A stretch of DNA of 64,000 bases. Origin: a candidate division TM6 bacterium GW2011_GWF2_38_10 (GTDB lineage Bacteria; Babelota; Babeliae; Babelales; RVW-14). Numbering within the stretch: the first letter of the stretch is position 1; the number at the start of each line of letters is the position of its first letter. The notes under the pieces were generated by a model. It made no database searches. It saw nothing but the letters and a program-made list of their open reading frames with translations, and had not been told where the DNA came from. The stretch covers positions 37,490 through 101,489 of the forward strand of contig LBTY01000002.1 of assembly GCA_000992305.1 (NCBI GenBank), read 5' to 3'. Below are positions 1,135 to 60,699 of the stretch, piece after piece. Made by a program: the position numbers and the translations under genes.

Positions 1135-3219
1135 TTATTCAAGCTCAGGAGCGACTAAGCGGATTCGATCCGTTTCTTTGTCATAAGCGGTAATCTTTAC
1201 CTGAAGTGTATCGCCAAGTTTGTAGTGATCATCAAAGGTGCGTTGTTTTGCTTTTGCTATAGTGGAGACATGAACAAGTCCTTCTTTGCCGGGAACAAGT
1301 TCTACGAAAATACCAAAATCGGTTACTCGGCGAATAATACCGGCATGGGTTGAGCCAACTTGAATATCGCCAGCAAGCATACGAACCCAGTTTTCTGCTT
1401 GAGTTGCTTGAGCGCCTTCTTTGGAGTAAATACGTACGCCACCATCGTCAGAGATATCAATTTGGGTACTGGTTTTTGCAATAATTTCTTTAATAACTTT
1501 ACCAGCAGGTCCAATAATGGCACCAATTTTATCAACAGGAACTTTAAAGAAAAGTACACGCGGTGCGTTCATTGAAAGTTCTTTACGTGGGGCGGTTAGT
1601 GTTTTGCGCATTTCATTGAGAATATGAAGTCGTCCTCTTTTTGCTTGTTCCAAAGCTTGAATAAAGACTTCGCGTGGTAATCCATATTTGTCTTTGATGT
1701 CAAGCTGGAATGCCATAATACCCGTTTCAGTTCCCGTAACTTTGAAATCCATGAGACCAAACGCATCTTCATCACCTAAAATATCGGTGAGGATGTAATA
1801 TTTTTTATTTTCATCTCTAAGCAATCCCATCGCAACACCAGCGACAATATTTTTAATTGGCACGCCAGCATCCATAAGCGCAAGGGATGTTGAGCATACG
1901 CTAGCCATTGATGAAGAACCATTGGATTCAAGAATGTCAACTACGGAGCGAATGGTGTAAGGAAATTCGTCTTGTTTAGGAAGAACATTGATAAATGATG
2001 TTTCGGCAAGGTAGCCATGACCGATTTCTCGACGTCCAGCGCCGCGTAACGGTTTAACTTCGCCTGTTGCAAATGGGGGAAAGTTGTAGTGAAGCATGAA
2101 TGATCGTTCTTGCAACCCGCCTAAAAAGTGTTCAACCTTTTGAGCATCTTGTGCTGTACCAAGCGTTAAACTTGCCATTGCATGGGTTTCTCCACGACGA
2201 AATGACGCAGACCCGTGGGTGCATGGAAGTAGTGAAACTTCAGATTCAATTTGGCGGACTTGTTCAAAGCCACGAAGGTCAAGGCGAGCATTTTTTTGTG
2301 CAACTGTTTCAGCGAGTTGTTCTTTGATTAATGATTCAAACAAAAAGTCGATAGCTTTTTTTGATATTTTTTCTTCTTCTATGGCTAGTTTGTGCTGTTC
2401 ATAAAGTTGTTCTTGTAAAGACGCCATAGTGTTACGACGAATGTCTTTTGATGGGTCAAAAAGTTGTGTAACGAAGTTTTTAGGAAGTGATTTTTTGATT
2501 GTTTCTTTCCAGGATTCCCAATCATAAGGAGCTGCTGGTTCATTTTTTACAACATTCAATGCTTTTTGAATATCAAGTTGCCATTGAATTTGTTGTTTAA
2601 TGATTTCATGAGCATTAAAAAGAAGATCAACGAGTTCTTCTTCTTGTACTTCATTACAGTGACCTTCTACCATGCAAATACCGTTGATTGTTCCAGCTAT
2701 GGTAATATCAGAATCTGATTGTGCGATTTCTTCGTGGGTAAGGTTAAATTTCCATTCGCCATTGATTTTACTTGCTTGGACTGCGCCGACAGGTCCCATA
2801 AAAGGAATTGGCGATATGGTGAGCGCAAGTGATGCACCAATGATTGAGAGAATGCTTGCGGGAAATTTTCCATCAGAAGAAAATACCGAACACATAACTT
2901 GAACTTCATTAAAGTAGTATGGAGGAAATAAAGGGCGAATAGGGCGGTCAATGTTACGAGAGGAAAGAACTTCAGCATCACTGAGTTTACCTTCTCTTTT
3001 AACATAACCACCAGGAATTCTTCCAGCGGCAGTAGGGCGTTCGCGATATTCAACGGTCAACGGAAAAAAGCCACCAAATTCTTTTGCATCTTTGGTAGCA
3101 ACGGCAGTGGCCAAAACAATGGTATTTCCGGCTTTAATCCACGCAGAACCATCAGCCTGGCGTGCAAACTTGCCTATCTCAACTTCTAAACCCAATTCAG
3201 GTAAACGAAAAACTTTCAT
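1135..3219 (-). CDS. pnp: Polyribonucleotide nucleotidyltransferase (PNPase)
   Basis: FFPLTVEYRE, RREIGHG, LESNGSSSMAS, KH (IGPAGKVIK) and S1 domains; start ATG 3219 chosen after GAGG SD. Confidence 0.98.
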   Translation of the reverse strand: MKVFRLPELGLEVEIGKFARQADGSAWIKAGNTIVLATAVATKDAKEFGGFFPLTVEYRERPTAAGRIPGGYVKREGKLSDAEVLSSRNIDRPIRPLFPPYYFNEVQVMCSVFSSDGKFPASILSIIGASLALTISPIPFMGPVGAVQASKINGEWKFNLTHEEIAQSDSDITIAGTINGICMVEGHCNEVQEEELVDLLFNAHEIIKQQIQWQLDIQKALNVVKNEPAAPYDWESWKETIKKSLPKNFVTQLFDPSKDIRRNTMASLQEQLYEQHKLAIEEEKISKKAIDFLFESLIKEQLAETVAQKNARLDLRGFEQVRQIESEVSLLPCTHGSASFRRGETHAMASLTLGTAQDAQKVEHFLGGLQERSFMLHYNFPPFATGEVKPLRGAGRREIGHGYLAETSFINVLPKQDEFPYTIRSVVDILESNGSSSMASVCSTSLALMDAGVPIKNIVAGVAMGLLRDENKKYYILTDILGDEDAFGLMDFKVTGTETGIMAFQLDIKDKYGLPREVFIQALEQAKRGRLHILNEMRKTLTAPRKELSMNAPRVLFFKVPVDKIGAIIGPAGKVIKEIIAKTSTQIDISDDGGVRIYSKEGAQATQAENWVRMLAGDIQVGSTHAGIIRRVTDFGIFVELVPGKEGLVHVSTIAKAKQRTFDDHYKLGDTLQVKITAYDKETDRIRLVAPELE

Positions 3220-3476
3220 AAAGAGCCTCACTTTGACGATATTAAATAAAAAGTTTGCAAAACATCAGGTACTGTGTATTTCACATCTTTCAACAACCAA
3301 ATTGGTGTTGAAATTTGGATTCAAGCAACGAGGGTCAAAATGTATTGACGTCACGTTGCTTAGCCCAATTGTTAATGCCTCAATTATATGTTGAAAAAAC
3401 ACTATATTTCCCAAAACAAAATCAGAGATTACCATTGTTGTGATTTTGCCTTTAAAAAAATAATAAATGCTTTGTA

Positions 3477-3734
3477 TTAACGAATTAATTGAGAAACCTT
3501 TTCAAAACTTTGACGATCATTTAGTTTAAGATAATTCATCAACGCTTTTCTTTTGCCAACCAATTTTACAAGGCCAAGCTGTGAATGTTTATCTTTAGGA
3601 AATGATTTAAGATGATCAGAAATACTGTTAATTCTTTCTGATAAAAGACCAATTTGTACCTCGCACGAACCAACATCTTGTGCGTTTTTTTTGAACTGAT
3701 CAATGATCTGACTTTTTTGTTCTTTTGTTAACAT
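3477..3734 (-). CDS. rpsO: 30S ribosomal protein S15
   Basis: DVGSCEVQIGLLSERI..HLK..PKDKHS..GL..LVGKRK; true start ATG 3734 (ORF-track extension overlaps tRNA-Val). Confidence 0.96.
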   Translation of the reverse strand: MLTKEQKSQIIDQFKKNAQDVGSCEVQIGLLSERINSISDHLKSFPKDKHSQLGLVKLVGKRKALMNYLKLNDRQSFEKVSQLIR

Positions 3735-40665: not shown

Positions 40666-41355
40666 TTATAATGCGGGGATGTCAATACACATTGAGTATG
40701 CCAATACGGTGATCATGGTTTTTAGATTATTACATTTTTGTATGTTATGAGGTGAAGGGTTTTTTATTGTTTTTAAGATGTTGTAAGTATTCATTGCAAT
40801 ATCTAGAGCATTTTGGTTGAATTCATTTTTTTCATGAATTAAGTTTGGTTGGGCGATTGAGCGTAATAAAAAACTTACAAGATCATTATTGTAAATGTCG
40901 TAATGAAGAGGGTTGTTAACGGTATATTGTGAATTATGTTTTTTGGGTTGAGTTTTTTTATGAGATTTTGTGGTTTGAGGTGATGTAGGGAGTAATGTAT
41001 TTTGGATGGCTTTTGGTGCTAAGTTTAATGGGGCTTGGGATCGTTTTTTCGTTGTATTGGTATTTGTGTTAGACTTATTTTTTGCTTCTATATTTGCTTC
41101 GTTGTCTATAAGAAGTTTGCATATTCGGGGGTTGTTATATTGAATCGCAAGGGTTAAAGGCATTATGTTGTCGAATATTGGTTGATTTACGTTTGCTCCA
41201 TGGTTAATGCAAGCTCTACATTTTTTTAGATTTCTGGTTATTATGGCATCAATGAAATGTTCTTGTATGCTTTGTTGGGTTGCTGCGTTATAGTTCATAG
41301 CGCAGCATGATGTTGTGATAAAGCTAAGGATGAGAATATAATTTTTTAAAAACAT
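40666..41355 (-). CDS. Secreted ankyrin-repeat protein
   Basis: Signal peptide; HGANVN..PLTLAI..ICKLLIDNEANIE; NPLH..NALDIA. Confidence 0.8.
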   Translation of the reverse strand: MFLKNYILILSFITTSCCAMNYNAATQQSIQEHFIDAIITRNLKKCRACINHGANVNQPIFDNIMPLTLAIQYNNPRICKLLIDNEANIEAKNKSNTNTNTTKKRSQAPLNLAPKAIQNTLLPTSPQTTKSHKKTQPKKHNSQYTVNNPLHYDIYNNDLVSFLLRSIAQPNLIHEKNEFNQNALDIAMNTYNILKTIKNPSPHNIQKCNNLKTMITVLAYSMCIDIPAL

Positions 41356-43794: not shown

Positions 43795-45093
43795 TTATAA
43801 AGCGTTATTGTAATCAAGGGCGCCCGAAATAACATCAATGCATGCGTCGGGCATAACAATGATGGCAATATTGTCAGCGACGGTTCCATTTCCAAGCGCT
43901 ATAGCTTCTTCTTTTGTTGTTCCGCTGCCTGAGATATAATTTTTGTGATCAAAAAAGAGTGATCCTTTGGTAAAGCGCAGTCCGGTCGAGGAGGAGTAAA
44001 TAGTATTTCCGTTAAAAAAGATTTGCGATGTTACGTCGTGCATGGTAATAAGATCGCGATCATTGACTCCCGGGTTATAGTAAAAATTACTTCCCGTATC
44101 AAAAAAACAGCGAGCAAAGCGCTCAATAATCATGGGCTTTTCTGCTTGGAATTTGAAGGAATTATTTCCTTGTATGCAAACATTTTTTTCAATGAAAAGC
44201 TTGCCGGTGTTAAATTCTATATCGCTTGTCAAGTTGAGTGTGACATTTTCAAGCGTTAGCGTGGCATCATTTGCTTGCGGCAGAATATTGTTTGGATTGG
44301 TAATAACAATAGTCATATTCTTTAAGGTTAATGAGACGGTGGAGTCAATAAGGAGTTGTGCTCCATTCTCAAATGATAATGTTGTATTGTTACCGTCAAT
44401 GATGGTGTTGCCAACAAAGGTTAAGCCTCCGCCGGCCTGAGGTATGGCAAGGTTGTGTGAGAAGTTGATGGTATACTCATCTCCATTAATGTTGCCACCC
44501 GTGGAGAATTGTGCATTGCTTGCAAGGGTAAGGTCATGGGCAAGGGTGAGTGTACCAAGTCCCGAGTCTCCAAGATTTATAGATCCATTTACTGCAAGGG
44601 GCGAATGTAAAATAAGTTCTTTGTTGTCGGGGATAACGATGCCATTTTGTAGTTGTCGAAGCGATTTATATGTTTGTACATCCTGGGTTACAATCAGCGG
44701 CTCATCTTGTGTTGTTAATCCATACACAATGGCATTGCTGTTATGGCGAATGCGGTTTTCAAGGTTGTTCAAGCTTTGTGAGTTTAGAGTAACGAGTGCA
44801 TTACTTGTGCTTGTTACTAAATCGGTTGCGGGTGTTACCCCTCCCTGGCCGATAACAATACCAGAGGAGTATCCTTCTTTCCAATTGCCAGCATGTGTTT
44901 CGCCAAGATTTTTTATGATGGATAATTCGCTCCACCCGGAAACTTTTTCGACGTTGTCAATGCGTAGCGCCGATTTTTCGTGGTTTAGTGTGATGGTTGA
45001 GCTTTTGTTGCAGAATATTAAATTTTTAGCAGTGGCTTCAGAGTAACATCCTATTATGGTACTCAAGAGCATTATGTTACGAAAATAATTCAT
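43795..45093 (-). CDS. Exported beta-strand-rich (beta-helix/adhesin-like) hypothetical protein
   Basis: Signal peptide; xSNAxV repeats; G/N/T/L-rich beta repeats; SD GGAGGGG before ATG 45093. Confidence 0.7.
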   Translation of the reverse strand: MNYFRNIMLLSTIIGCYSEATAKNLIFCNKSSTITLNHEKSALRIDNVEKVSGWSELSIIKNLGETHAGNWKEGYSSGIVIGQGGVTPATDLVTSTSNALVTLNSQSLNNLENRIRHNSNAIVYGLTTQDEPLIVTQDVQTYKSLRQLQNGIVIPDNKELILHSPLAVNGSINLGDSGLGTLTLAHDLTLASNAQFSTGGNINGDEYTINFSHNLAIPQAGGGLTFVGNTIIDGNNTTLSFENGAQLLIDSTVSLTLKNMTIVITNPNNILPQANDATLTLENVTLNLTSDIEFNTGKLFIEKNVCIQGNNSFKFQAEKPMIIERFARCFFDTGSNFYYNPGVNDRDLITMHDVTSQIFFNGNTIYSSSTGLRFTKGSLFFDHKNYISGSGTTKEEAIALGNGTVADNIAIIVMPDACIDVISGALDYNNAL

Positions 45094-45280
45094 AGTCCCC
45101 TCCCCTTTATGCGGTTTAGTGTGCCGCACATTTACTATAAAAACTACAGACATTTTTCTAATGGCATTACTTTTTTAAAAAAACATTCTGGGAGGGGCTA
45201 GTTTTACTATAGAAAGATTTTCGCTTTAGAATCAATAAAAGAGAAAAAAGGTCTTTTTTGTTGCAACGATAAGCCTTTAT

Positions 45281-45750: not shown

Positions 45751-48198
45751 TTAAACGTTAAGATGGACATCAAGACCTTCGGTAGTTTGTGAGCAGTGTG
45801 CGGCTTGTAGTTTTTCGTTGTGGTACGAAAGTGTTGATGCTTTGGTTATTCCTTTGATGATTTGTTCAAGATTTTGGATATTTTTTAAAAGGTCGCTGTT
45901 GTCCGAATAGAGCGCAAGTTCTTTAATATCAGCTTTGAGTGATAATTGATTTTCACTTTTAATTTTTCGAATATTGCCGACCAGTTCAACAATAGTATCG
46001 CCAAGCGTGGTGCCGTATTCAAAGTTGCTTGTGTAGCGCGTGGTGTCGATGATGGTTGTGTGAATTGAAACATTTTTTTCTTTGCTGCGATAAAGTTGTT
46101 GGTAGAGTGTTTCCGTGATGTGAGGTAAAAATGGTGAGAATAGTTGTAAAATACCAAATCCAACGGTGTAGAGTGTGGAGCGCGTTCCATTAATTTCATC
46201 ATTAGTGTAATTTTGTGGATTGAAAAATTGATCTTTTACCAGTTCAAGATAATTGTCGCAAAAAATACTCCAAAAAAATTGTTCAACACATTCAAGTGCA
46301 CTTGAATATTCATAAGCGTCAAATCGTTGAATATACTGTTTAACGGTGGCATCAAGGTGTTGTAGCACCCATTGGTTGATTGCGTTTAGTGCTGGAGTTG
46401 TTTGTGTTGGTTGATAATCGGTGATGTGTTGTGCGCAAAAACGTAAGGCATTCCACATTTTTGTAATCAAGCGCTGGCCTATTTTGAGTTGGTTATCGCT
46501 AAATGCAGTATCGGTTCCTAAGCGTGCACTTGCTGACCAATAGCGAATAACATCGGCTGGATAGGTTTGCAAAAGTGCTTCAGGAGAAGTTTTGCTGTTT
46601 TCTTTTGATTTTGAAATTTTTTCTTTGCCTGCAAGCACATGGCCTGAAATAACAATGTCATTCCATGGGATTGTATTGTGGTGATAGTGTGCTTTGACAA
46701 TCGTGTTAAATGCCCAGGTTCGTATAATATCGTGAGCTTGAGGGCGGATAGACATAGGCATAGAAAGATTTTCTGGCGATTGCTCTGGCCAGTTAAGATT
46801 GATTTGCGGCGTGAGTGATGATGTATTCCAGGTGTCCATAACGTCAGTGTCGGGTGTTATGTTTTTGCTTGCGCAATGAGGGCAGGCTCCGCCAGGAAAT
46901 GGTTCTTCTTGGGGGTCAATAGGCAGTTGTTCTGGCTGCGCGAGCAAAATAGCGTGACAATCATTGCAGTGCCAAGCAGGGAAAGGGATTCCAAAAAAAC
47001 GTTGGCGTGATATGCACCAATCCCAATTTAGGTGTTCAACCCAGTCTTTATAACGTGCTTTCATAAATGATGGATACCAGTTGATTTGTTCGCCACGGTC
47101 TAAAAATGCTTGTTTATACTCCAATATTTTTACAAACCATTGTGAAAGGATTTGGTATTCAATTTCTTGTTTGCAGCGTTCATGGGTGCTCACGGCATGG
47201 GTTATGGTTCGTTGGCAAACAAGCGCGCCGCATGCTTGTAAAAGCTCGATTATTTTTTTTCGTGCTTCGTGAACCGTGCAGCCGGAAAGCGGTCCTGTTA
47301 TGTCGGTCCATTTACCATCAAGGCCTATAGCTTGAATAAAGGGTAATTTGTGTTGTTTGAACCAGTAAATATCAGTTTGATCACCAAAGGTACAGCACAT
47401 AACAAGGCCGGTTCCTTTTTCAGGATCAACTTTACTGTCGGCAAGCACGGGAACTGTTGTGTTGAAAACGGGTATTGTAGCTTTTTTTCCAATAAGGTTG
47501 TGATAACGAGTATCATCTGGATGGCAAAATACTGCCACGCATGCAGGCAACAATTCTGGGCGCGTGGTTGCTATGATTACTGGTTTTCCATCGACCATAA
47601 AGGTGATATCATTGAATGTTGAGGTAACATCAGCACTATCAAGTTCAGCTTGAGAAACGGATGTGCGGCACGTGGTGCAATAGAGTGCTGGCTCATGCTT
47701 TCTATAAATAAAATCTTTTTTATAAAGGTCTAAAAACGAGTGTTGCGAAATTTTTCGGGCTTTGTCTGAAATGGTTGAGTAGAGTTTTGTCCAGTCAATT
47801 GAAAGACCCAGGCTGCGCCAAAGTTTTTCAAATTCTTTTTCGACTAAGGCAGTTTCTTCAAGGCATATGTTGATAAATTCTGATCGTTTGAGCATATGTG
47901 CTTTGAACCCGCGTTTTTTTTCAACAAAGCGCTCGGTAGGTAATCCGTTATCGTCAAAACCCATTGGGTAGAAAACATTAAAACCGCGCATACGTTTATA
48001 CCGTGCAATAACGTCCTGGTGGGTATATGAAAATACGTGTCCAATATGGAGGGAGCCCGAAACAGTTGGGGGAGGTGTGTCGATGCTTACGGTTTGCTTG
48101 GTGGGATGAGGGGTGAAAAGATAAATTTTTTCATCATCCCAGAGTTGCTGGGCATTTTTTTCACATGTTTGACTGTCATAAATTTTATTCATTTCCAT
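45751..48198 (-). CDS. valS: Valine--tRNA ligase (short, archaeal/type-2)
   Basis: DTPPPTVSGSLHIGH, WDWCISRQR, PQAHDIIRTW, KISKS. Confidence 0.95.
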   Translation of the reverse strand: MEMNKIYDSQTCEKNAQQLWDDEKIYLFTPHPTKQTVSIDTPPPTVSGSLHIGHVFSYTHQDVIARYKRMRGFNVFYPMGFDDNGLPTERFVEKKRGFKAHMLKRSEFINICLEETALVEKEFEKLWRSLGLSIDWTKLYSTISDKARKISQHSFLDLYKKDFIYRKHEPALYCTTCRTSVSQAELDSADVTSTFNDITFMVDGKPVIIATTRPELLPACVAVFCHPDDTRYHNLIGKKATIPVFNTTVPVLADSKVDPEKGTGLVMCCTFGDQTDIYWFKQHKLPFIQAIGLDGKWTDITGPLSGCTVHEARKKIIELLQACGALVCQRTITHAVSTHERCKQEIEYQILSQWFVKILEYKQAFLDRGEQINWYPSFMKARYKDWVEHLNWDWCISRQRFFGIPFPAWHCNDCHAILLAQPEQLPIDPQEEPFPGGACPHCASKNITPDTDVMDTWNTSSLTPQINLNWPEQSPENLSMPMSIRPQAHDIIRTWAFNTIVKAHYHHNTIPWNDIVISGHVLAGKEKISKSKENSKTSPEALLQTYPADVIRYWSASARLGTDTAFSDNQLKIGQRLITKMWNALRFCAQHITDYQPTQTTPALNAINQWVLQHLDATVKQYIQRFDAYEYSSALECVEQFFWSIFCDNYLELVKDQFFNPQNYTNDEINGTRSTLYTVGFGILQLFSPFLPHITETLYQQLYRSKEKNVSIHTTIIDTTRYTSNFEYGTTLGDTIVELVGNIRKIKSENQLSLKADIKELALYSDNSDLLKNIQNLEQIIKGITKASTLSYHNEKLQAAHCSQTTEGLDVHLNV

Positions 48199-48477
48199 AA
48201 TGTTACCTTTTTCTACGCACATATAATGTTTCCATCTGCTGAAAATGTAGCAAAAAAGTTTTTCTTTGTCGTTGTTAATTTTTGGTATTAATCTAAAAGA
48301 TTGTTTTTTGTTTCAATATGTAAATATAGGTAGTACGGGAGCATAAAAAATGTTGGTTGATAACGCTATTTTATGAAGCTTTTGATATTTATTATAAATT
48401 ATGGTTAGCTTAGCTCCTGCTTTTTAAAAAGGCATAGTAAAAGTGTGTTGAGTTCTTCTTTGTCAAGGAGTGTTTTT

Positions 48478-50835
48478 ATGTTTTTTAATAATAACCGAAT
48501 TTTTTTAGGTTTTGTGCTTGTACTAAGCTTTTTTGGGTATCATGTGAATGCGATGCTAAGCTCTGAAGGAATGATTGATAAGCAAACATCATTGAGCTGC
48601 GCAGCTGATAGCCTACTTGGGAGGTTTGACGAATTTAATTATATCTGTAAAAAATTTTCTGAGTATCCGGAAAAATCAATGATTACCTGGCAGGGTTTTG
48701 TTGATCTGCTTGATACCGTTTGTATGATAATGAGAAATGAAATTACTCATTCTTCTTGGGTGGCGCATCATGCTCAAGATCCTTTGCAGAGACTTTCTAA
48801 TGGGCGACGGCATGTCTATGCACAAGCTCGTGTTGTGCCTTCTAACACAAGAATTGTTGTTATGAGTGATTATCACGGGAGTGTGCATTCACTTATTCGC
48901 AATATTGAGTATATGAAATATGATGAGTTATTGGGTAAAAGTAATTGTATTTCATCTTCTGGTATTTTGGCGCCGAATGTTATTCTTGTTTTTTTGGGCG
49001 ATTTGGCAGATCGTGGACATTACGGATTAGAAATGTGGGTTTTGGCATTACTTTTGAAATTGAAAAATCCACATAATGTTTTTTTGTTACGTGGTAATCA
49101 TGAAGATTTAGATTATGTTGCATCCAATAAGCCTAGTGGATTTAATCATGAATTAGCTTACAAGTTATCTTCAACGGAATTTGGAATGATTGCTCCAGCG
49201 CTTGATCAATCTATCAAATCACTTTGTGATGCTTACTTTCCTTGTTTGTTTGGTTATTTACCCCAAGTTTTATTTTTAGGTACCCATGGTGAAGCCAATG
49301 ATCCTATTTCATTTTTGATGTTTTGTCATGGAGGATTGGCATTAAGGTCATCAGAGTCCATTTTGGATAATGCCTATAGTGGTGGTGTTGCGGTAGGACC
49401 TTATTTGAGCCCTATGGATTTTCATCCACTTTTAGATCAAGCGTGTCAGCAGCCGGGAAAAAATGTTTCTTGTTTGTCAAAAGAGGAGTTATACCCATCA
49501 GGTTTTTTATGGGATGGGTTTGTTGCAGATGCTTGCGAGCCTTTTCCTACCGATATTGATGGATATCGTGGTTGTGATAAGCTTGTGCAAGGTTCGTGTG
49601 CTATGCATTATTTGCAAACACTGGGCAAAGAGGGGTGTTATTCGGTTGCTGGCATTGTTCGCGGGCATGATCATTTTGATTATGGTGTGAGTGTGTTAAG
49701 GGCTTTTGATTCGTTGGGGGAATATCGCGATTTAAAAAAATTTTGGAATACCGTTTATCGTCCTGTAGATTGTTGTTATGATGAGTGGCTTAAGCAATTT
49801 CCTATTTTTACGGTAACGAGTTTTGCAGAACAGACTCATGTTGATGCTTATGCGCTTGCATCATTTAATCCAACAACCAAAATATGGCAAATTTCGCCTC
49901 GTATTAATAAAGTGCCGGTTCAATTATGTGAAGTAGCACCCATTCAATCGATTGATACGTGTTGGAAAAATAAAAAGTATAACGTTCCATTGACCAAGGA
50001 AGGTTCTACAAAGCCAGTATTTATCCCGTATGATTTTTCGGTTAATAATATCAACAATATTATTAACAAGGAAGTGCGTGGGGTTCCTATTCCAGGGGTA
50101 TTTTTGTTAGATAAATCTGGGCGAACTATTTTTTCTCCTCAATGGCAAATTGCGTTAAACACAAGTTTAGTTGAATGTGAATTTGGGTTTTTAGGTGAGG
50201 CAGAATATGAATCAGGTTTATTAAATCAGGCGGAGACGGTAAAATGCTATGGCATTTGTAATTGCGATATGGTTGCGCTTGTTAGTGCTGCCCAGCATGT
50301 AAAAAATCTTTATCTTTTTGATGCGTATAAGGAGCTTACCGATTCTGCCTTTGGCTTGCTTTTTTTTATGCAAGAATTGTCTTATTTGTATATTGGAAAG
50401 GGCAACTTTTCTGATGCAACATTATTTTTTTTAGAAAAAGCACCCGTATTAAAATCTTTGGTTCTTGATGGGAGAGTAATGTCGGAAAAATCTTTGCAGT
50501 GGCTTGTTGAAAGTCCCTCATTAGAGGATGTTACTATTCGTGGATTTGGTTCACTTTCATCTAACGCTGTGGCGCTATTGTTGCATATGAAGCATATTAA
50601 AAAAATAACGATTGAATCTTGTCCGTTAGTTAAAAAAGATTTTTTTTCCCATGACCAAGAAATAGCATCATGTTGTCCTACCCTTGAAGAAATTATTATG
50701 GATGGAGAAACCATTTATCCAAAATCATTCATACGAGAATCGGTTCGCAATAGTGTTGCTCCTTCAACCAGGCAGCATGTTTCCCAAGGTGTCCCGTCGG
50801 GAGCTGGTTCGAGTAATTGTTGCTTGTTGATATAA
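48478..50835 (+). CDS. Secreted PPP-family Ser/Thr phosphatase with LRR region and C-terminal CaaX box
   Basis: Signal peptide; SDYHG, GDLADRG, RGNHE, HGG, RGHD; LRR-like repeats; ends SSNCCLLI; SD AAGGAG. Confidence 0.85.
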   Translation: MFFNNNRIFLGFVLVLSFFGYHVNAMLSSEGMIDKQTSLSCAADSLLGRFDEFNYICKKFSEYPEKSMITWQGFVDLLDTVCMIMRNEITHSSWVAHHAQDPLQRLSNGRRHVYAQARVVPSNTRIVVMSDYHGSVHSLIRNIEYMKYDELLGKSNCISSSGILAPNVILVFLGDLADRGHYGLEMWVLALLLKLKNPHNVFLLRGNHEDLDYVASNKPSGFNHELAYKLSSTEFGMIAPALDQSIKSLCDAYFPCLFGYLPQVLFLGTHGEANDPISFLMFCHGGLALRSSESILDNAYSGGVAVGPYLSPMDFHPLLDQACQQPGKNVSCLSKEELYPSGFLWDGFVADACEPFPTDIDGYRGCDKLVQGSCAMHYLQTLGKEGCYSVAGIVRGHDHFDYGVSVLRAFDSLGEYRDLKKFWNTVYRPVDCCYDEWLKQFPIFTVTSFAEQTHVDAYALASFNPTTKIWQISPRINKVPVQLCEVAPIQSIDTCWKNKKYNVPLTKEGSTKPVFIPYDFSVNNINNIINKEVRGVPIPGVFLLDKSGRTIFSPQWQIALNTSLVECEFGFLGEAEYESGLLNQAETVKCYGICNCDMVALVSAAQHVKNLYLFDAYKELTDSAFGLLFFMQELSYLYIGKGNFSDATLFFLEKAPVLKSLVLDGRVMSEKSLQWLVESPSLEDVTIRGFGSLSSNAVALLLHMKHIKKITIESCPLVKKDFFSHDQEIASCCPTLEEIIMDGETIYPKSFIRESVRNSVAPSTRQHVSQGVPSGAGSSNCCLLI

Positions 50836-56596: not shown

Positions 56597-58102
56597 ATGA
56601 TAAAAAGAATAGGACTTTTGGTTTGTTTGTATTGTGGAATTTATTCCTTTGCGTGTGGAATGGTTACGGATAACCGCAATCCTCTTGTTGATTTGTGCCA
56701 AACCATTTTGCAGCAATGTGATGAGTTTAATTATAGTTGTATGCCTTTAAAAGACGTTTACTGTGTTCAAGATTATGCGGGTGAAATTACGAGAAATAAA
56801 ATCACGTGTCCAGTGTCAGCCCAGATGTTTTTGTCTGCGATGGACGATGTCATTAATATGCTAAAGTATAATCTTTCTGATAACACGACGTGGGTTAGTT
56901 CAAACGATCAAGACCCCATCCCCCAGCCGGCAGCGATTATTTCTACTTTAGAACAACCGCAGCAGGGAATTTATGTAGTGGCGCTTGAGGCTGCGCCGAC
57001 TACAAAGGTTATTGTAACCAGCGATTATCACGGTAATGTCCACGCATTTATACGAAATTTGTATCGCTATCGTAATGCCGGGTTGATGAATGGTGATTTT
57101 GTTTTGCGTGATGATGTTGTGCTTATTATTAACGGTGACATTGCTGATCGTGGGCATTATGGTGTTGAATTGTGGGCGGTATTGTTTTTGCTCATGATCC
57201 AAAATCCGCACAATGTGATTCTTGTTCAAGGAAATCACGAAGAAGATTCTGTAGCTCAGGATTATGGTTTTTATGCAGAACTTGAAGCTAAGTTATTTGC
57301 TTCCTATGATGGGCAAGCGTTGCGTAAGCGTATACGATCGCATATTTTGTCGTTGTGGGGATTGCTTCCGCAGGCTGTTTTTGTGGGGGTGCGTGATTAT
57401 AAAGGCATTCTTAATTTTGCACAATGTAATCACGGTGGGTTGCCGGGGCCGCTTTTGGGGCAGTCGTTTGCGCCTGGGTATGATGGTTTTTGTATGTTGC
57501 TTGAAAAAGTGGCTGAGGATCATCGTCCTTATAAAAAATATGCCTTTTTGCAGTCAAGAGTTCCCAAACGTAATGGTTTAACATGGAATGGTTTTTTTGC
57601 TGGAGCAGGTTCAACGACGGTTAAGCAAGGCAAGCGGCGGGATGATTTTTTACACCATGGGTGTACGGTTTCTGATTATTTTGGGCGCTTACGATCACGT
57701 GATGTACGAGTTTCGTGTATTGTGCGCGGACACGAACATTTGGACCATGGAATAAATCAACTGCAAGATGTTGTTCCGGAATCTATTGATCATCGAAAGT
57801 GTTGTCCGGGGTGGGCACCTTTTTTTAAAAAAATTCCTTTGTGTTATGGGGATAATAGTTATCCTGTTTTGACCATAACAAGCATGGCTGAAGATTTTTT
57901 TAAGGATGCCTATGTTGTGCTTTCATTTGTTCCTGAGGCACGTGTTTGGATCGCAACTCCATGCGTTTATGAATCCTTGTTTGCAGGCGATCGGCAGGGG
58001 GATTTGTTTTTGCGGTGGAAGGTTACGTATAATGAAAGTACCCATTCATTTGATTGGAGTGCCCTTGTTGAGCGCGCAAATGCTGTGGCTGATGATGACT
58101 AA
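56597..58102 (+). CDS. Secreted PPP-family Ser/Thr phosphatase (paralog of 48478)
   Basis: Signal peptide; SDYHG, GDIADRG, GNHE, HGG, RGHE; SD AAGGAG. Confidence 0.85.
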   Translation: MIKRIGLLVCLYCGIYSFACGMVTDNRNPLVDLCQTILQQCDEFNYSCMPLKDVYCVQDYAGEITRNKITCPVSAQMFLSAMDDVINMLKYNLSDNTTWVSSNDQDPIPQPAAIISTLEQPQQGIYVVALEAAPTTKVIVTSDYHGNVHAFIRNLYRYRNAGLMNGDFVLRDDVVLIINGDIADRGHYGVELWAVLFLLMIQNPHNVILVQGNHEEDSVAQDYGFYAELEAKLFASYDGQALRKRIRSHILSLWGLLPQAVFVGVRDYKGILNFAQCNHGGLPGPLLGQSFAPGYDGFCMLLEKVAEDHRPYKKYAFLQSRVPKRNGLTWNGFFAGAGSTTVKQGKRRDDFLHHGCTVSDYFGRLRSRDVRVSCIVRGHEHLDHGINQLQDVVPESIDHRKCCPGWAPFFKKIPLCYGDNSYPVLTITSMAEDFFKDAYVVLSFVPEARVWIATPCVYESLFAGDRQGDLFLRWKVTYNESTHSFDWSALVERANAVADDD

Positions 58103-59190: not shown

Positions 59191-60699
59191 ATGGTTCGTT
59201 TTTCGATAACAAATACCGCTGCGCGCGGGACAACCTCTCGTTTTTTAGTGTGTGCTGCTCTTGTTGCTGTGGGGGCGTTTTTTCGTGTAACGGCAACACC
59301 AATCAATAATTACAACGATACCAATGCGGTTTATTCTCCGCAAGGGTCAGATCGTTTTTACATAAAACCTGATGAAAAAAAGACCAGCAAAGGCGGCTTG
59401 CGGTTGCAGATTTCGCCTTTTTATCAACATGCGGGCCGCGCGCGTAACGGCGCCGGCAGAAGTGTTCCTATGGGTGAACGCTTGGGTAAGTGGAATATGA
59501 CAGGGTTGTTTTTTGGACAAGCGGCGGCGCCAAAGGCCTTTGCTAGCTACACAGAGTTGAATAAAGTTTTTACGACGTATTTTAATTCTGGGAATGGTAT
59601 TAATGATGGAAGTGATGATATTACCGGCTTTTCCACACCATTGCAAAACCTTGCCAAAGAAGCAGATTATGACCTTGACGTTAACGTAGCTTCGTTGTTT
59701 GGAGGGTTTAATGGTGAAGGAGATCCTAAGGATACTGGCGCGCTTGGCATTACTTATGAAAAATATGGGTTGCGCGGGCAGGTTGCGGTGAGTTTTGTGC
59801 ATGGACTGAGCTTGTCGGTAAAAGGTGGGTTGGTTGATTATAAAATGGCACCTAATTTTAATGTTGGTGAAACGTTGAAGTCACAAAGGGATTTAACCGA
59901 TGACGATCAAAAAGCAAAAAAAGTGGTATACGATCATCTTTTTGCTCCTACTGCGCGTGCAAAATTATTTGGCGAAATAGGACTTGACCTTGATAGCGTG
60001 CGCAAGACGGCAATGGAAGATATGCACATTCAGCTGCAGTGGCACTTGCCGCAAGATTTTCGTGAAAACGATGAGCTTGCTGTGACGGTGATTCCAAGTC
60101 TTGCGGCGGGGATGTGGTTGCCAACTGGTAAGAAAAAAGATCAAGATCGTGCATTTTCGTTGGATACTGGCAATGGTGGTTTTTATGGATTTACGCTTGA
60201 GGGTGCGCTTGCTTTTGATTTTCCTCAGCTTATGCAAACTAATTTTGGTGGCGGGGCTATTGTTTCGGCAAGCAAAGACCAAAGTGGGTACCGAGTGCCG
60301 TCGGCTAATCCAACGGTTGGCGTGATTAAGCAACAAGGTTTTTATCCTTGGAAAACCAGCGTGAATATTAAACCTGGGTTAACATGGTTTGCACAAGCAT
60401 CGCTCAAGTCTGAAGGGTTTAGTGGCGATCTTTCGTTGTTTTTTGATTATGTGTATACCTATCACCAAAGAGATTCAATTACGTTAAAAGAGACAAGTGT
60501 TACTCGTCAGGAAGCATTTGCCCCTGGCGTGAAGTATCTTGAAAATGAGTCAAATTGGAAGAGTCAGTTGTGCAATATTGGGCTTGATTACCGCATAACC
60601 AAAAACCTTGCGTTTGGTGGTCTTGTGCAGGGAATGATTGGCGGCTCGCATGTGTTGAAGTCTACGCTTGTGATGGGAACTGTAACATTTTCATTCTAA
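59191..60699 (+). CDS. Putative outer-membrane beta-barrel protein
   Basis: Signal peptide, alternating aromatic beta strands, C-terminal VTFSF. Confidence 0.65.
   Translation: MVRFSITNTAARGTTSRFLVCAALVAVGAFFRVTATPINNYNDTNAVYSPQGSDRFYIKPDEKKTSKGGLRLQISPFYQHAGRARNGAGRSVPMGERLGKWNMTGLFFGQAAAPKAFASYTELNKVFTTYFNSGNGINDGSDDITGFSTPLQNLAKEADYDLDVNVASLFGGFNGEGDPKDTGALGITYEKYGLRGQVAVSFVHGLSLSVKGGLVDYKMAPNFNVGETLKSQRDLTDDDQKAKKVVYDHLFAPTARAKLFGEIGLDLDSVRKTAMEDMHIQLQWHLPQDFRENDELAVTVIPSLAAGMWLPTGKKKDQDRAFSLDTGNGGFYGFTLEGALAFDFPQLMQTNFGGGAIVSASKDQSGYRVPSANPTVGVIKQQGFYPWKTSVNIKPGLTWFAQASLKSEGFSGDLSLFFDYVYTYHQRDSITLKETSVTRQEAFAPGVKYLENESNWKSQLCNIGLDYRITKNLAFGGLVQGMIGGSHVLKSTLVMGTVTFSF

Follow-up and report, generated by a model that had tools for sequence, protein, structure and literature searches.

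The gene at positions 48478-50835 (+) of a 64,000-nt window of the candidate division TM6 bacterium GW2011_GWF2_38_10 (contig LBTY01000002.1, positions 37,490 to 101,489 of the forward strand; "the window" means this whole stretch) raises the question of why a bacterial phosphatase with a predicted signal peptide should end in a CaaX box, the type of C-terminus that is prenylated by host enzymes in some effectors of intracellular bacteria. It is a single open reading frame (ORF) of 785 aa, free of internal stops, that joins a PPP-family phosphatase to leucine-rich repeats (LRRs) and ends in GSSNCCLLI-stop. An earlier note, made by a model from the letters alone, had seen this terminus in the translation and proposed a host-lipidated phosphatase effector; as a whole, that interpretation is partly supported. 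Our preferred answer, to which we assign a probability of roughly 0.58, is that the gene encodes a PP1-like phosphatase exported by Sec and a type II route, geranylgeranylated at C782 and palmitoylated at C781 by the host, which would sit on a host membrane and dephosphorylate proteins selected by its LRR.

ATG 48478 was taken as the start, rather than GTG 48445, because a Shine-Dalgarno-like AAGGAG (48465..48470, +) is placed 7 nt before it. The longer frame from the GTG (796 aa) was ruled out; the AAGGAG, the database proteins and the paralogue all favor ATG 48478. Residues 1-25 (48478..48552, +) are a predicted Sec signal peptide with a basic residue, a hydrophobic core and a cleavage site between HVNA and M, as the earlier note had read it. 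This call, like the other signal-peptide-like calls below, was made by inspection and our own hydropathy rule, and the structure model has a helix at residues 6-26. The hydrophobic N-terminal start is also kept in paralogues of the fused phosphatase. The phosphatase domain (approximately residues 37-481, 48586..49920, +; PP1/rdgC-like by PF00149, profile, Foldseek and motifs) is followed by a variable inter-domain linker (residues 482-586, 49921..50235, +), which shows low confidence in the model and indels in relatives. Next come an F-box-type (RNI-like) LRR domain (residues 587-747, 50236..50718, +; model, profile and Foldseek) and a Ser/Gly/Pro-rich tail linker predicted to be disordered (residues 748-780, 50719..50817, +; sequence, model and paralogue alignment). 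The CaaX box C781-C782-L-L-I-stop (50818..50835, +) was assigned from the sequence, the rule for the X residue (PMC9141697) and the FBXL2 precedent (PMC9988375). A structure model built from a 43-sequence alignment has a mean predicted local distance difference test score (pLDDT) of 70.5. It is confident in the catalytic domain and in the LRR, and pLDDT is below 50 over residues 482-601 and over the tail 762-785. No NCBIfam family matches the 785-aa fused protein (P0001).

The C-terminal part resembles the LRRs of F-box proteins. Pfam LRR_At5g56370 (F-box-associated) matches residues 603-722 with an E value of 1.6e-5, below the family cut-off, and no F-box family was found at E up to 1 in the Pfam scan of the fused protein. 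Modelled alone, this part has seven repeat strands and a capping strand, with pLDDT of approximately 76-92 over most repeats. The earlier note had named about six F-box/LRR-like repeats; the type holds and the count is raised to seven. The LRR profile matches Skp2 (1.2e-8) and FBXL17 (2.2e-8), and a Foldseek search ranks FBXL2 in its complex with geranylgeranyltransferase 3 (GGTase3) at the top (6o60_C, E 1.3e-4). The best reading is that the LRR-CCaaX module copies FBXL2, as judged by analogy. The CCaaX terminus had first been likened to Ras and Rho; the box stands, and the nearer model is the LRR protein FBXL2.

Is the tail kept by selection? A CCLL(I/T) terminus was found in 11/11 sequences with this LRR cassette, a result that bears out the conservation check suggested in the earlier note. 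The carriers are fused (P0001, P0003, P0004, P0005 and P0226-P0228) or stand-alone LRR proteins (P0076, P0077, P0229 and P0230), and they amount to three gene lineages (two fused paralogue groups and the stand-alone LRR) in one species group. The fused and stand-alone LRRs are 21-22% identical; S-x-CCLL is invariant nonetheless. The second fused gene of this genome, on contig C19, is 70% identical and ends in PSSCCLLI. It is without 28 residues of the tail linker, so this Ser/Gly/Pro-rich linker, which the earlier note had described as flexible and which indeed has low pLDDT, appears to be dispensable. Between the two fused paralogues the CCLLI codons show three synonymous and no replacement changes, at a whole-gene ratio of nonsynonymous to synonymous substitution rates (dN/dS) of 0.29. 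Contigs from four sequencing runs carry fused relatives with linker indels. Taken as sequence evidence, the conserved CCLLI tail appears to be more than chance.

The stand-alone exported LRR gene of this genome (contig C10) ends in QSSCCLLT. It is convergent with, and 47 bases from, an unfused PPP gene of the same clade, within a cluster of further LRR genes. This locus (L001:1785-6056) is an island of exported LRR genes with the unfused PPP and the convergent LRR-CCLLT gene; one LRR gene in it (2619-3477) is split over two overlapping frames by a frameshift or an assembly error. Cys at position -4 from the C-terminus (Cys-4) was found in 0/13 unfused PPP paralogues of this genome and in 0/26 PPPs read from the loci of relatives (30 loci with 27 complete PPP frames, including that of C19), so the CaaX motif seems to travel with the LRR. 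Among 73 homologues, Cys-4 occurs in 3/3 fused and 2/70 unfused proteins. One of the two, P0041, is an unfused Babelota-type PPP from another source that ends in KWCPCCTIL and lies on a long branch apart from the fusion in the tree; with its three cysteines clustered upstream, it is apparently an independent gain of CaaX. Among 261 genomes of the phylum Babelota, the LRR cassette is strong in this genome only, with weak generic LRR matches in 5/260 others. In a profile search of 1.84 billion representatives, only P0076 and P0005 were close among the matches listed, the other 148 being generic long LRR proteins. We infer from these sequences that the fusion may have originated by capture of an LRR-CCaaX targeting cassette.

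ORFs of at least 100 aa were called in this genome (826 ORFs) and in parts of three others, covering 1.2 of 1.45 Mb in G009 (same family), 0.8 of 1.53 Mb in G040 and 0.8 of approximately 1.2 Mb in G034 (both from other families). Expected counts were taken from the same pattern at offsets -5 to -40. The Cys-4 enrichment that the earlier note had suggested looking for is present among the signal-peptide-like proteins of this genome (14/319 vs 5.1 expected); G009 has 9/434 vs 5.8 and G034 has 11/361 vs 4.8. The raw excess is modest and uneven across the genomes. Of all residues at -4 in the signal-peptide class, Cys shows the strongest enrichment. The narrower pattern Cx[VILMF]x was found in 18/1483 signal-peptide-like proteins of the pooled genomes vs 6.1 expected (13/1164 vs 4.6 without this genome, p 9e-4) and in 13/1750 other proteins vs 7.8 expected (p 0.05).

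A Pfam search of 21 selected proteins indicated that many Cys-4 carriers are ankyrin, WD40, LRR or RING proteins. Ankyrin, WD40 and LRR repeat proteins were then collected with hidden Markov models (HMMs) trained solely on proteins without Cys-4; this replaced a first test (11/208) in which the HMM seeds were CaaX-bearing proteins. A Cx[VILMF]x end was found in 10/199 repeat proteins of the four genomes vs 0.94 expected (p 5.5e-8), in 6/149 vs 0.39 without this genome (p 3.2e-6) and in 7/193 vs 0.86 when only ankyrin and WD40 proteins are counted. The other proteins have 21/3034 (Fisher p 8.9e-6), and the counts by genome are 4/50, 3/73, 2/60 and 1/16. All of the Cys-4 carriers among the repeat proteins (12/12) are signal-peptide-like. 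The effect is position-specific, with 10-11 at -4 vs 0-4 at neighbouring offsets, and textbook-type tails are present (KKKKCVIL, KRCTIL, KRTKKCHIM, CMIS and CTIS). The p values overstate the enrichment, because the class was picked after matches had been seen and because the counts, from related genomes, are small. Chance is unlikely given the position-specificity and tails such as KKKKCVIL and KRTKKCHIM. On this sequence comparison, CaaX tails appear to be about ten times commoner than chance on eukaryote-like repeat proteins in the four pooled Babelota genomes.

Some carriers may be described individually. Two adjoining small exported proteins with no Pfam match (L130:6949-7703) end in TTKKKKCVIL and ETKRCTIL, which resemble the polybasic tail of K-Ras4B. 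An exported ankyrin-RING protein (L012:5540-7345), a candidate E3 ligase with Ser-rich linkers, ends in CMIS. In this genome, outside the window and in the order of the coordinate listing, ankyrin proteins at C13:13477-14103 and C1:54589-56241 end in TCLLF and SCWCC, and a coiled-coil-like protein at C2:130791-132380 ends in NCYLL.

The phosphatase domain belongs to the PPP family. Pfam Metallophos (PF00149) matches residues 125-227 with an E value of 1.7e-10, and the metal-binding set DxH, GDxxD, GNHE, HGG and RGH, which the earlier note had reported, is complete. The motifs are DYHG at 131, GDLADRG at 174, GNHE at 206, HGG at 284, YRG at 363 and RGHDH at 395, with key residues D131, H133, D175, D178, R179, N207, H208, H284, R364 and H397. 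The family profile matches rdgC in the PDB at 1.9e-31, and also calcineurin, BSU1, PP1 and PP5. A Foldseek search lists PP1 and rdgC first (E 1e-14, TM-score of approximately 0.7 by target length). The two-arginine clamp is present as R179 in motif 2 and R364-G365 in the loop after WxD, as assigned by sequence position; the criteria for the PPP class (clamp and DP doublet) were taken from PMC8249667. P0001 and its closest homologue P0004 retain every metal ligand and both clamp arginines, and the PPP domain is the best-conserved part of the protein (86% identity to P0004; dN/dS of 0.26 to the paralogue).

The PPP family was found in 183/261 genomes of the phylum, with 15 members in this genome. 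One of them, an unfused exported paralogue of 501 aa, is in the window (56597..58102, +; Pfam, homology and tree); it has no LRR and no CaaX and ends in ADDD. The named PPP relatives include Dependentiae/TM6 proteins and one Verrucomicrobia protein. In a quick tree of 64 rows (the only version made), the two fused genes group together (support 99) within a 14-row clade (support 99) that contains ten genes of this genome, and 12 eukaryote-type PPP rows, so labelled by us from source names and domain content, group on one side. The fusion is nested in a lineage-specific expansion of exported PPPs. Its placement inside a clade dominated by genes of this genome suggests that it is recent and local. 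No donor of the fusion is indicated by the tree. A loci search with the PPP alignment gave 219 pattern matches, none of which was confirmed. Babelota PPP domains also occur in ORFs of 1100-2000 aa in G023, G150, G154, G156, G158, G164 and G014, so other fusions of the exported family exist. The exported Babelota PPP family as such seems to be undescribed.

How could such a protein reach a host? The window belongs to a 1.05-Mb genome (89% complete) whose RuvA has its best named relatives in candidate division TM6, Ca. Babeliales and Ca. Dependentiae. Babelota isolates are described as intracellular parasites of protists (PMC6561590, PMC4378268, PMC12172432), and this genome has an NTP/NDP exchanger-like gene with a score below the cut-off. 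SecY is present, as are three secretins, two T2SSF genes and two T2SSE matches over the cut-off; secretins gave two to four matches in each of 41/41 genomes searched. These genes could be parts of a type II secretion system or of a type IV pilus. Searches of this genome (89% complete) for FlhA/SctV, VirB4 and VipB, the markers of type III, IVA and VI systems, gave no match, and the control genomes matched. DotA had no match in this genome, but no control matched either. Likewise, the prenyltransferase family PF00432 was found in 0/41 genomes, but no control matched and the absence is unproven. Type II is the only secretion system detected according to PMC4378268, and type II components are listed as core in PMC4776705. 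Babela is described as growing in a vacuole, and Chromulinavorax, in which outer-membrane vesicles were seen, in the host cytoplasm.

Several observations weigh against our preferred answer, and some of them also speak for alternatives. The tail might be lipidated by the host while the enzyme is weak or altered (a substrate trap, or an enzyme for a non-protein substrate), or the function could reside in the LRR-CCaaX module, an FBXL mimic without an F-box that would bind host targets or mediate recognition with its own prenyltransferase. We consider this fairly unlikely. It draws on the absence of the DP doublet (Asp208 equivalent; WDGF at 345-348, WxDF in the wider family) and of the SAPNY motif with its Tyr272 equivalent (FTVTSFAE at 444), by which the domain appears to be an atypical PPP. 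It also draws on the LRR-CCLLT module that occurs alone and on the LRR of FBXL2, which serves as the docking face for GGTase-III (PMC9141697). The fused paralogue on C19 (L002:4621-6849) and three cluster-mates point the same way: they have lost the first clamp Arg to Tyr (GDLADYG, one member GDLADYA) and are still conserved, and the GDLADYG paralogue may be a pseudophosphatase, substrate trap or scaffold version kept under purifying selection. In P0001 and P0004, however, the metal ligands and both arginines are all kept, the PPP domain is better conserved than the rest, and the fold matches PP1. With the clamp arginines kept but the DP doublet and SAPNY replaced, catalytic activity is likely and the substrate specificity cannot be called.

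An unlikely alternative, in our judgment, is that the protein never leaves the periplasm or vacuole lumen and receives no prenyl group, with the CC and the hydrophobic end used in folding, in a disulfide or as an export signal and the CaaX match incidental. No injection system was found among the markers searched, and Babela is vacuolar. The fused protein is rich in Cys (3.3% vs 1.5%), so that a CC arising by chance or forming a disulfide is more likely a priori. The raw excess of Cys-4 is a modest one, and G040 lacks it (4/369 vs 5.7 expected). Further points count against our preferred answer itself. The direct comparison of Cx[VILMF]x ends in signal-peptide-like and other proteins (18/1483 vs 13/1750) is not significant (p 0.12). 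Peaks of like size occur off target: Cys-6 in G034 (12/363), and Cys as the last residue in 16/434 signal-peptide-like proteins of G009 (L007-L066) vs 5.8 expected, a peak that is absent in the other three genomes and may be chance. The repeat-protein counts are only one to four per genome in related genomes. The lead of FBXL2 in the fold search is slim (1.3e-4 vs 1.6e-4 for other LRRs), and the CCLLI codon conservation is weak alone since 21% of five-residue windows are identical between the two paralogues anyway. An incidental match does not readily account for an enrichment that is specific to -4 and to ankyrin, WD40, LRR and RING proteins rather than proteins generally, for polybasic K-Ras-type tails among the carriers, or for a motif that remains exactly terminal despite linker indels. 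Very improbable is a third possibility, in which the tail is a bacterial C-terminal sorting tag like those of the MYXO-CTERM type and a CaaX-protease-like enzyme of the bacterium itself processes it. A conserved Cys and type II secretion are indeed features of such tags (PMC11980579), but their Cys needs to be followed by both a transmembrane helix and an Arg-rich terminus. Here just three residues follow it, and the missing helix largely refutes this reading. Furthermore, a search for Rce1-like PF02517 genes found none in this genome (89% complete), whereas 11/14 controls matched.

The host-lipidated phosphatase that we prefer would work as follows. Sec and then the type II-type machinery, or else outer-membrane vesicles, would most likely carry the protein out of the bacterium, and it would then arrive in the host cytosol. 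C782 is predicted to be geranylgeranylated by host enzymes, as X = Ile predicts this lipid (PMC9141697). C781 may be palmitoylated by the host, as expected from the adjacent Cys by analogy with FBXL2, in which C419 is palmitoylated beside the geranylgeranylated C420-VIL (PMC9988375). Amoebae are capable of farnesylating a bacterial CaaX effector (PMC2916131). The lipids would hold the protein on a membrane, the likeliest being the vacuolar or an organellar one, where the LRR may pick host partners for the tethered phosphatase. The chain would thus be a one-chain targeted holophosphatase with a catalytic domain, an LRR scaffold and a lipid anchor. PP1 with SHOC2 and MRAS, or with SDS22, provides a functional analogy; PP1-SHOC2-MRAS and SDS22 complexes occur as PDB titles among the fold-search matches. 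The weakest of these inferred steps are passage out of the vacuole and the role of the LRR. A type II system takes proteins no further than the exterior of the bacterium; with Babela in a vacuole, passage to cytosolic prenyltransferases is unexplained, which is a further point against our answer.

Protein prenyltransferases are cytosolic, and selection for CaaX tails is therefore sequence-level evidence of cytosolic access. Babelota papers assume that the many proteins with signal peptides, encoded by 44% of the genes in Chromulinavorax, arrive in the host cytoplasm, with type II as the only system reported; the Babelota papers examined yielded no direct evidence of such delivery in their available text. 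We would give even odds to a broader proposal, in which Babelota get proteins with Sec signals into the host cytosol with no injection system and routinely position them by host prenylation. CaaX tails would then have been gained separately by ankyrin, WD40, RING, LRR and phosphatase proteins, and this gene would be a single-chain lipid-anchored PP1-like holophosphatase, made from the phylum-wide exported PPP and an FBXL2-like LRR-CCaaX cassette. If true, the CaaX tail is a built-in reporter of cytosolic delivery for the large uncharacterised secretome of the phylum, and prenylation and aaX cleavage in infected protists would be a direct assay of cytosolic access. The gene also points to an exported PP1-like family present across most of the phylum.

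Other genes of the window were noted. The gene at 45751-48222 (-) encodes a valyl-tRNA synthetase that matches the PRK13208 model best and is 46% identical to a Woesearchaeota protein, i.e., an archaeal-type enzyme. A search for related loci with this synthetase gave three, of no help in placing the organism. An exported ankyrin protein is encoded nearby at 40666-41355 (-). By inspection only, 43795-45153 (-) is labelled a beta-helix-like exported protein and 59191-60699 (+), which has no Pfam match, a probable outer-membrane barrel.

No description of a PPP-LRR-CCaaX fusion or of Babelota CaaX proteins was found in the literature searched (listings, openings of abstracts and the main texts named here), in keeping with the earlier note, which did not recognise the architecture; the combination of a PPP phosphatase, a built-in LRR scaffold and a predicted double lipid anchor was not found described. 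"CAAX" and "prenyl" have no occurrences in the main texts of PMC4776705, PMC4378268 and PMC12172432. Host prenylation of effectors is itself established for AnkB, seven Pels and SifA (PMC2916131, PMC13081727), and the earlier note was right to cite AnkB and SifA. AnkB, Pel and CMP proteins of Legionella and SifA of Salmonella, which come from intracellular bacteria, similarly combine a eukaryote-like repeat domain with a terminal CaaX anchor used in a protist or animal host, and SifA is also S-acylated, according to a reference title. They differ in being injected by type III or IV systems, whereas the present protein has a Sec signal and its genome encodes type II-type parts; the searches for type III, IVA and VI markers found none. 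No Sec route for host-prenylated effectors was found in the literature searched; a chlamydial preprint discusses symbiont-encoded prenyltransferases instead. A PPP phosphatase is not described for any Pel in the available text. WipA and WipB of Legionella (PMC12363953) are also bacterial phosphatases with a PPP fold; they target host phosphoproteins and have additional domains outside the catalytic core. They are translocated effectors, the available text mentions no LRR or CaaX for them, and neither the best 60 sequence matches nor the fold matches listed include a Wip chain.

With the eukaryotic PPPs (PP1, rdgC/PPEF, PP5 and BSU1) and the "EukaryoticPPP-Like" group, the domain shares the fold, the metal motifs and both clamp arginines (PMC8249667, PMC10214084); Dependentiae/TM6 are not named in the main texts of these two papers. 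It differs from them in forming a separate Babelota-centred clade, in its signal peptides and in having neither the SAPNY Tyr nor the DP doublet. PP5, rdgC and BSU1 likewise have fused regulatory domains, and PP1 works with the LRR proteins SDS22 and SHOC2. The closest parallel for the C-terminal half is FBXL2 (6o60; PMC9988375, PMC9141697), with its F-box-type LRR, extra strand after the last repeat, flexible tail and C-C-a-a-X end. At 13% identity, orthology to FBXL2 is not established, and the bacterial protein has no F-box, seven repeats instead of 13 and a phosphatase in place of the link to a ubiquitin ligase. The cassette thus appears to work like the tail module of FBXL2 while, lacking an F-box, it is not an FBXL.

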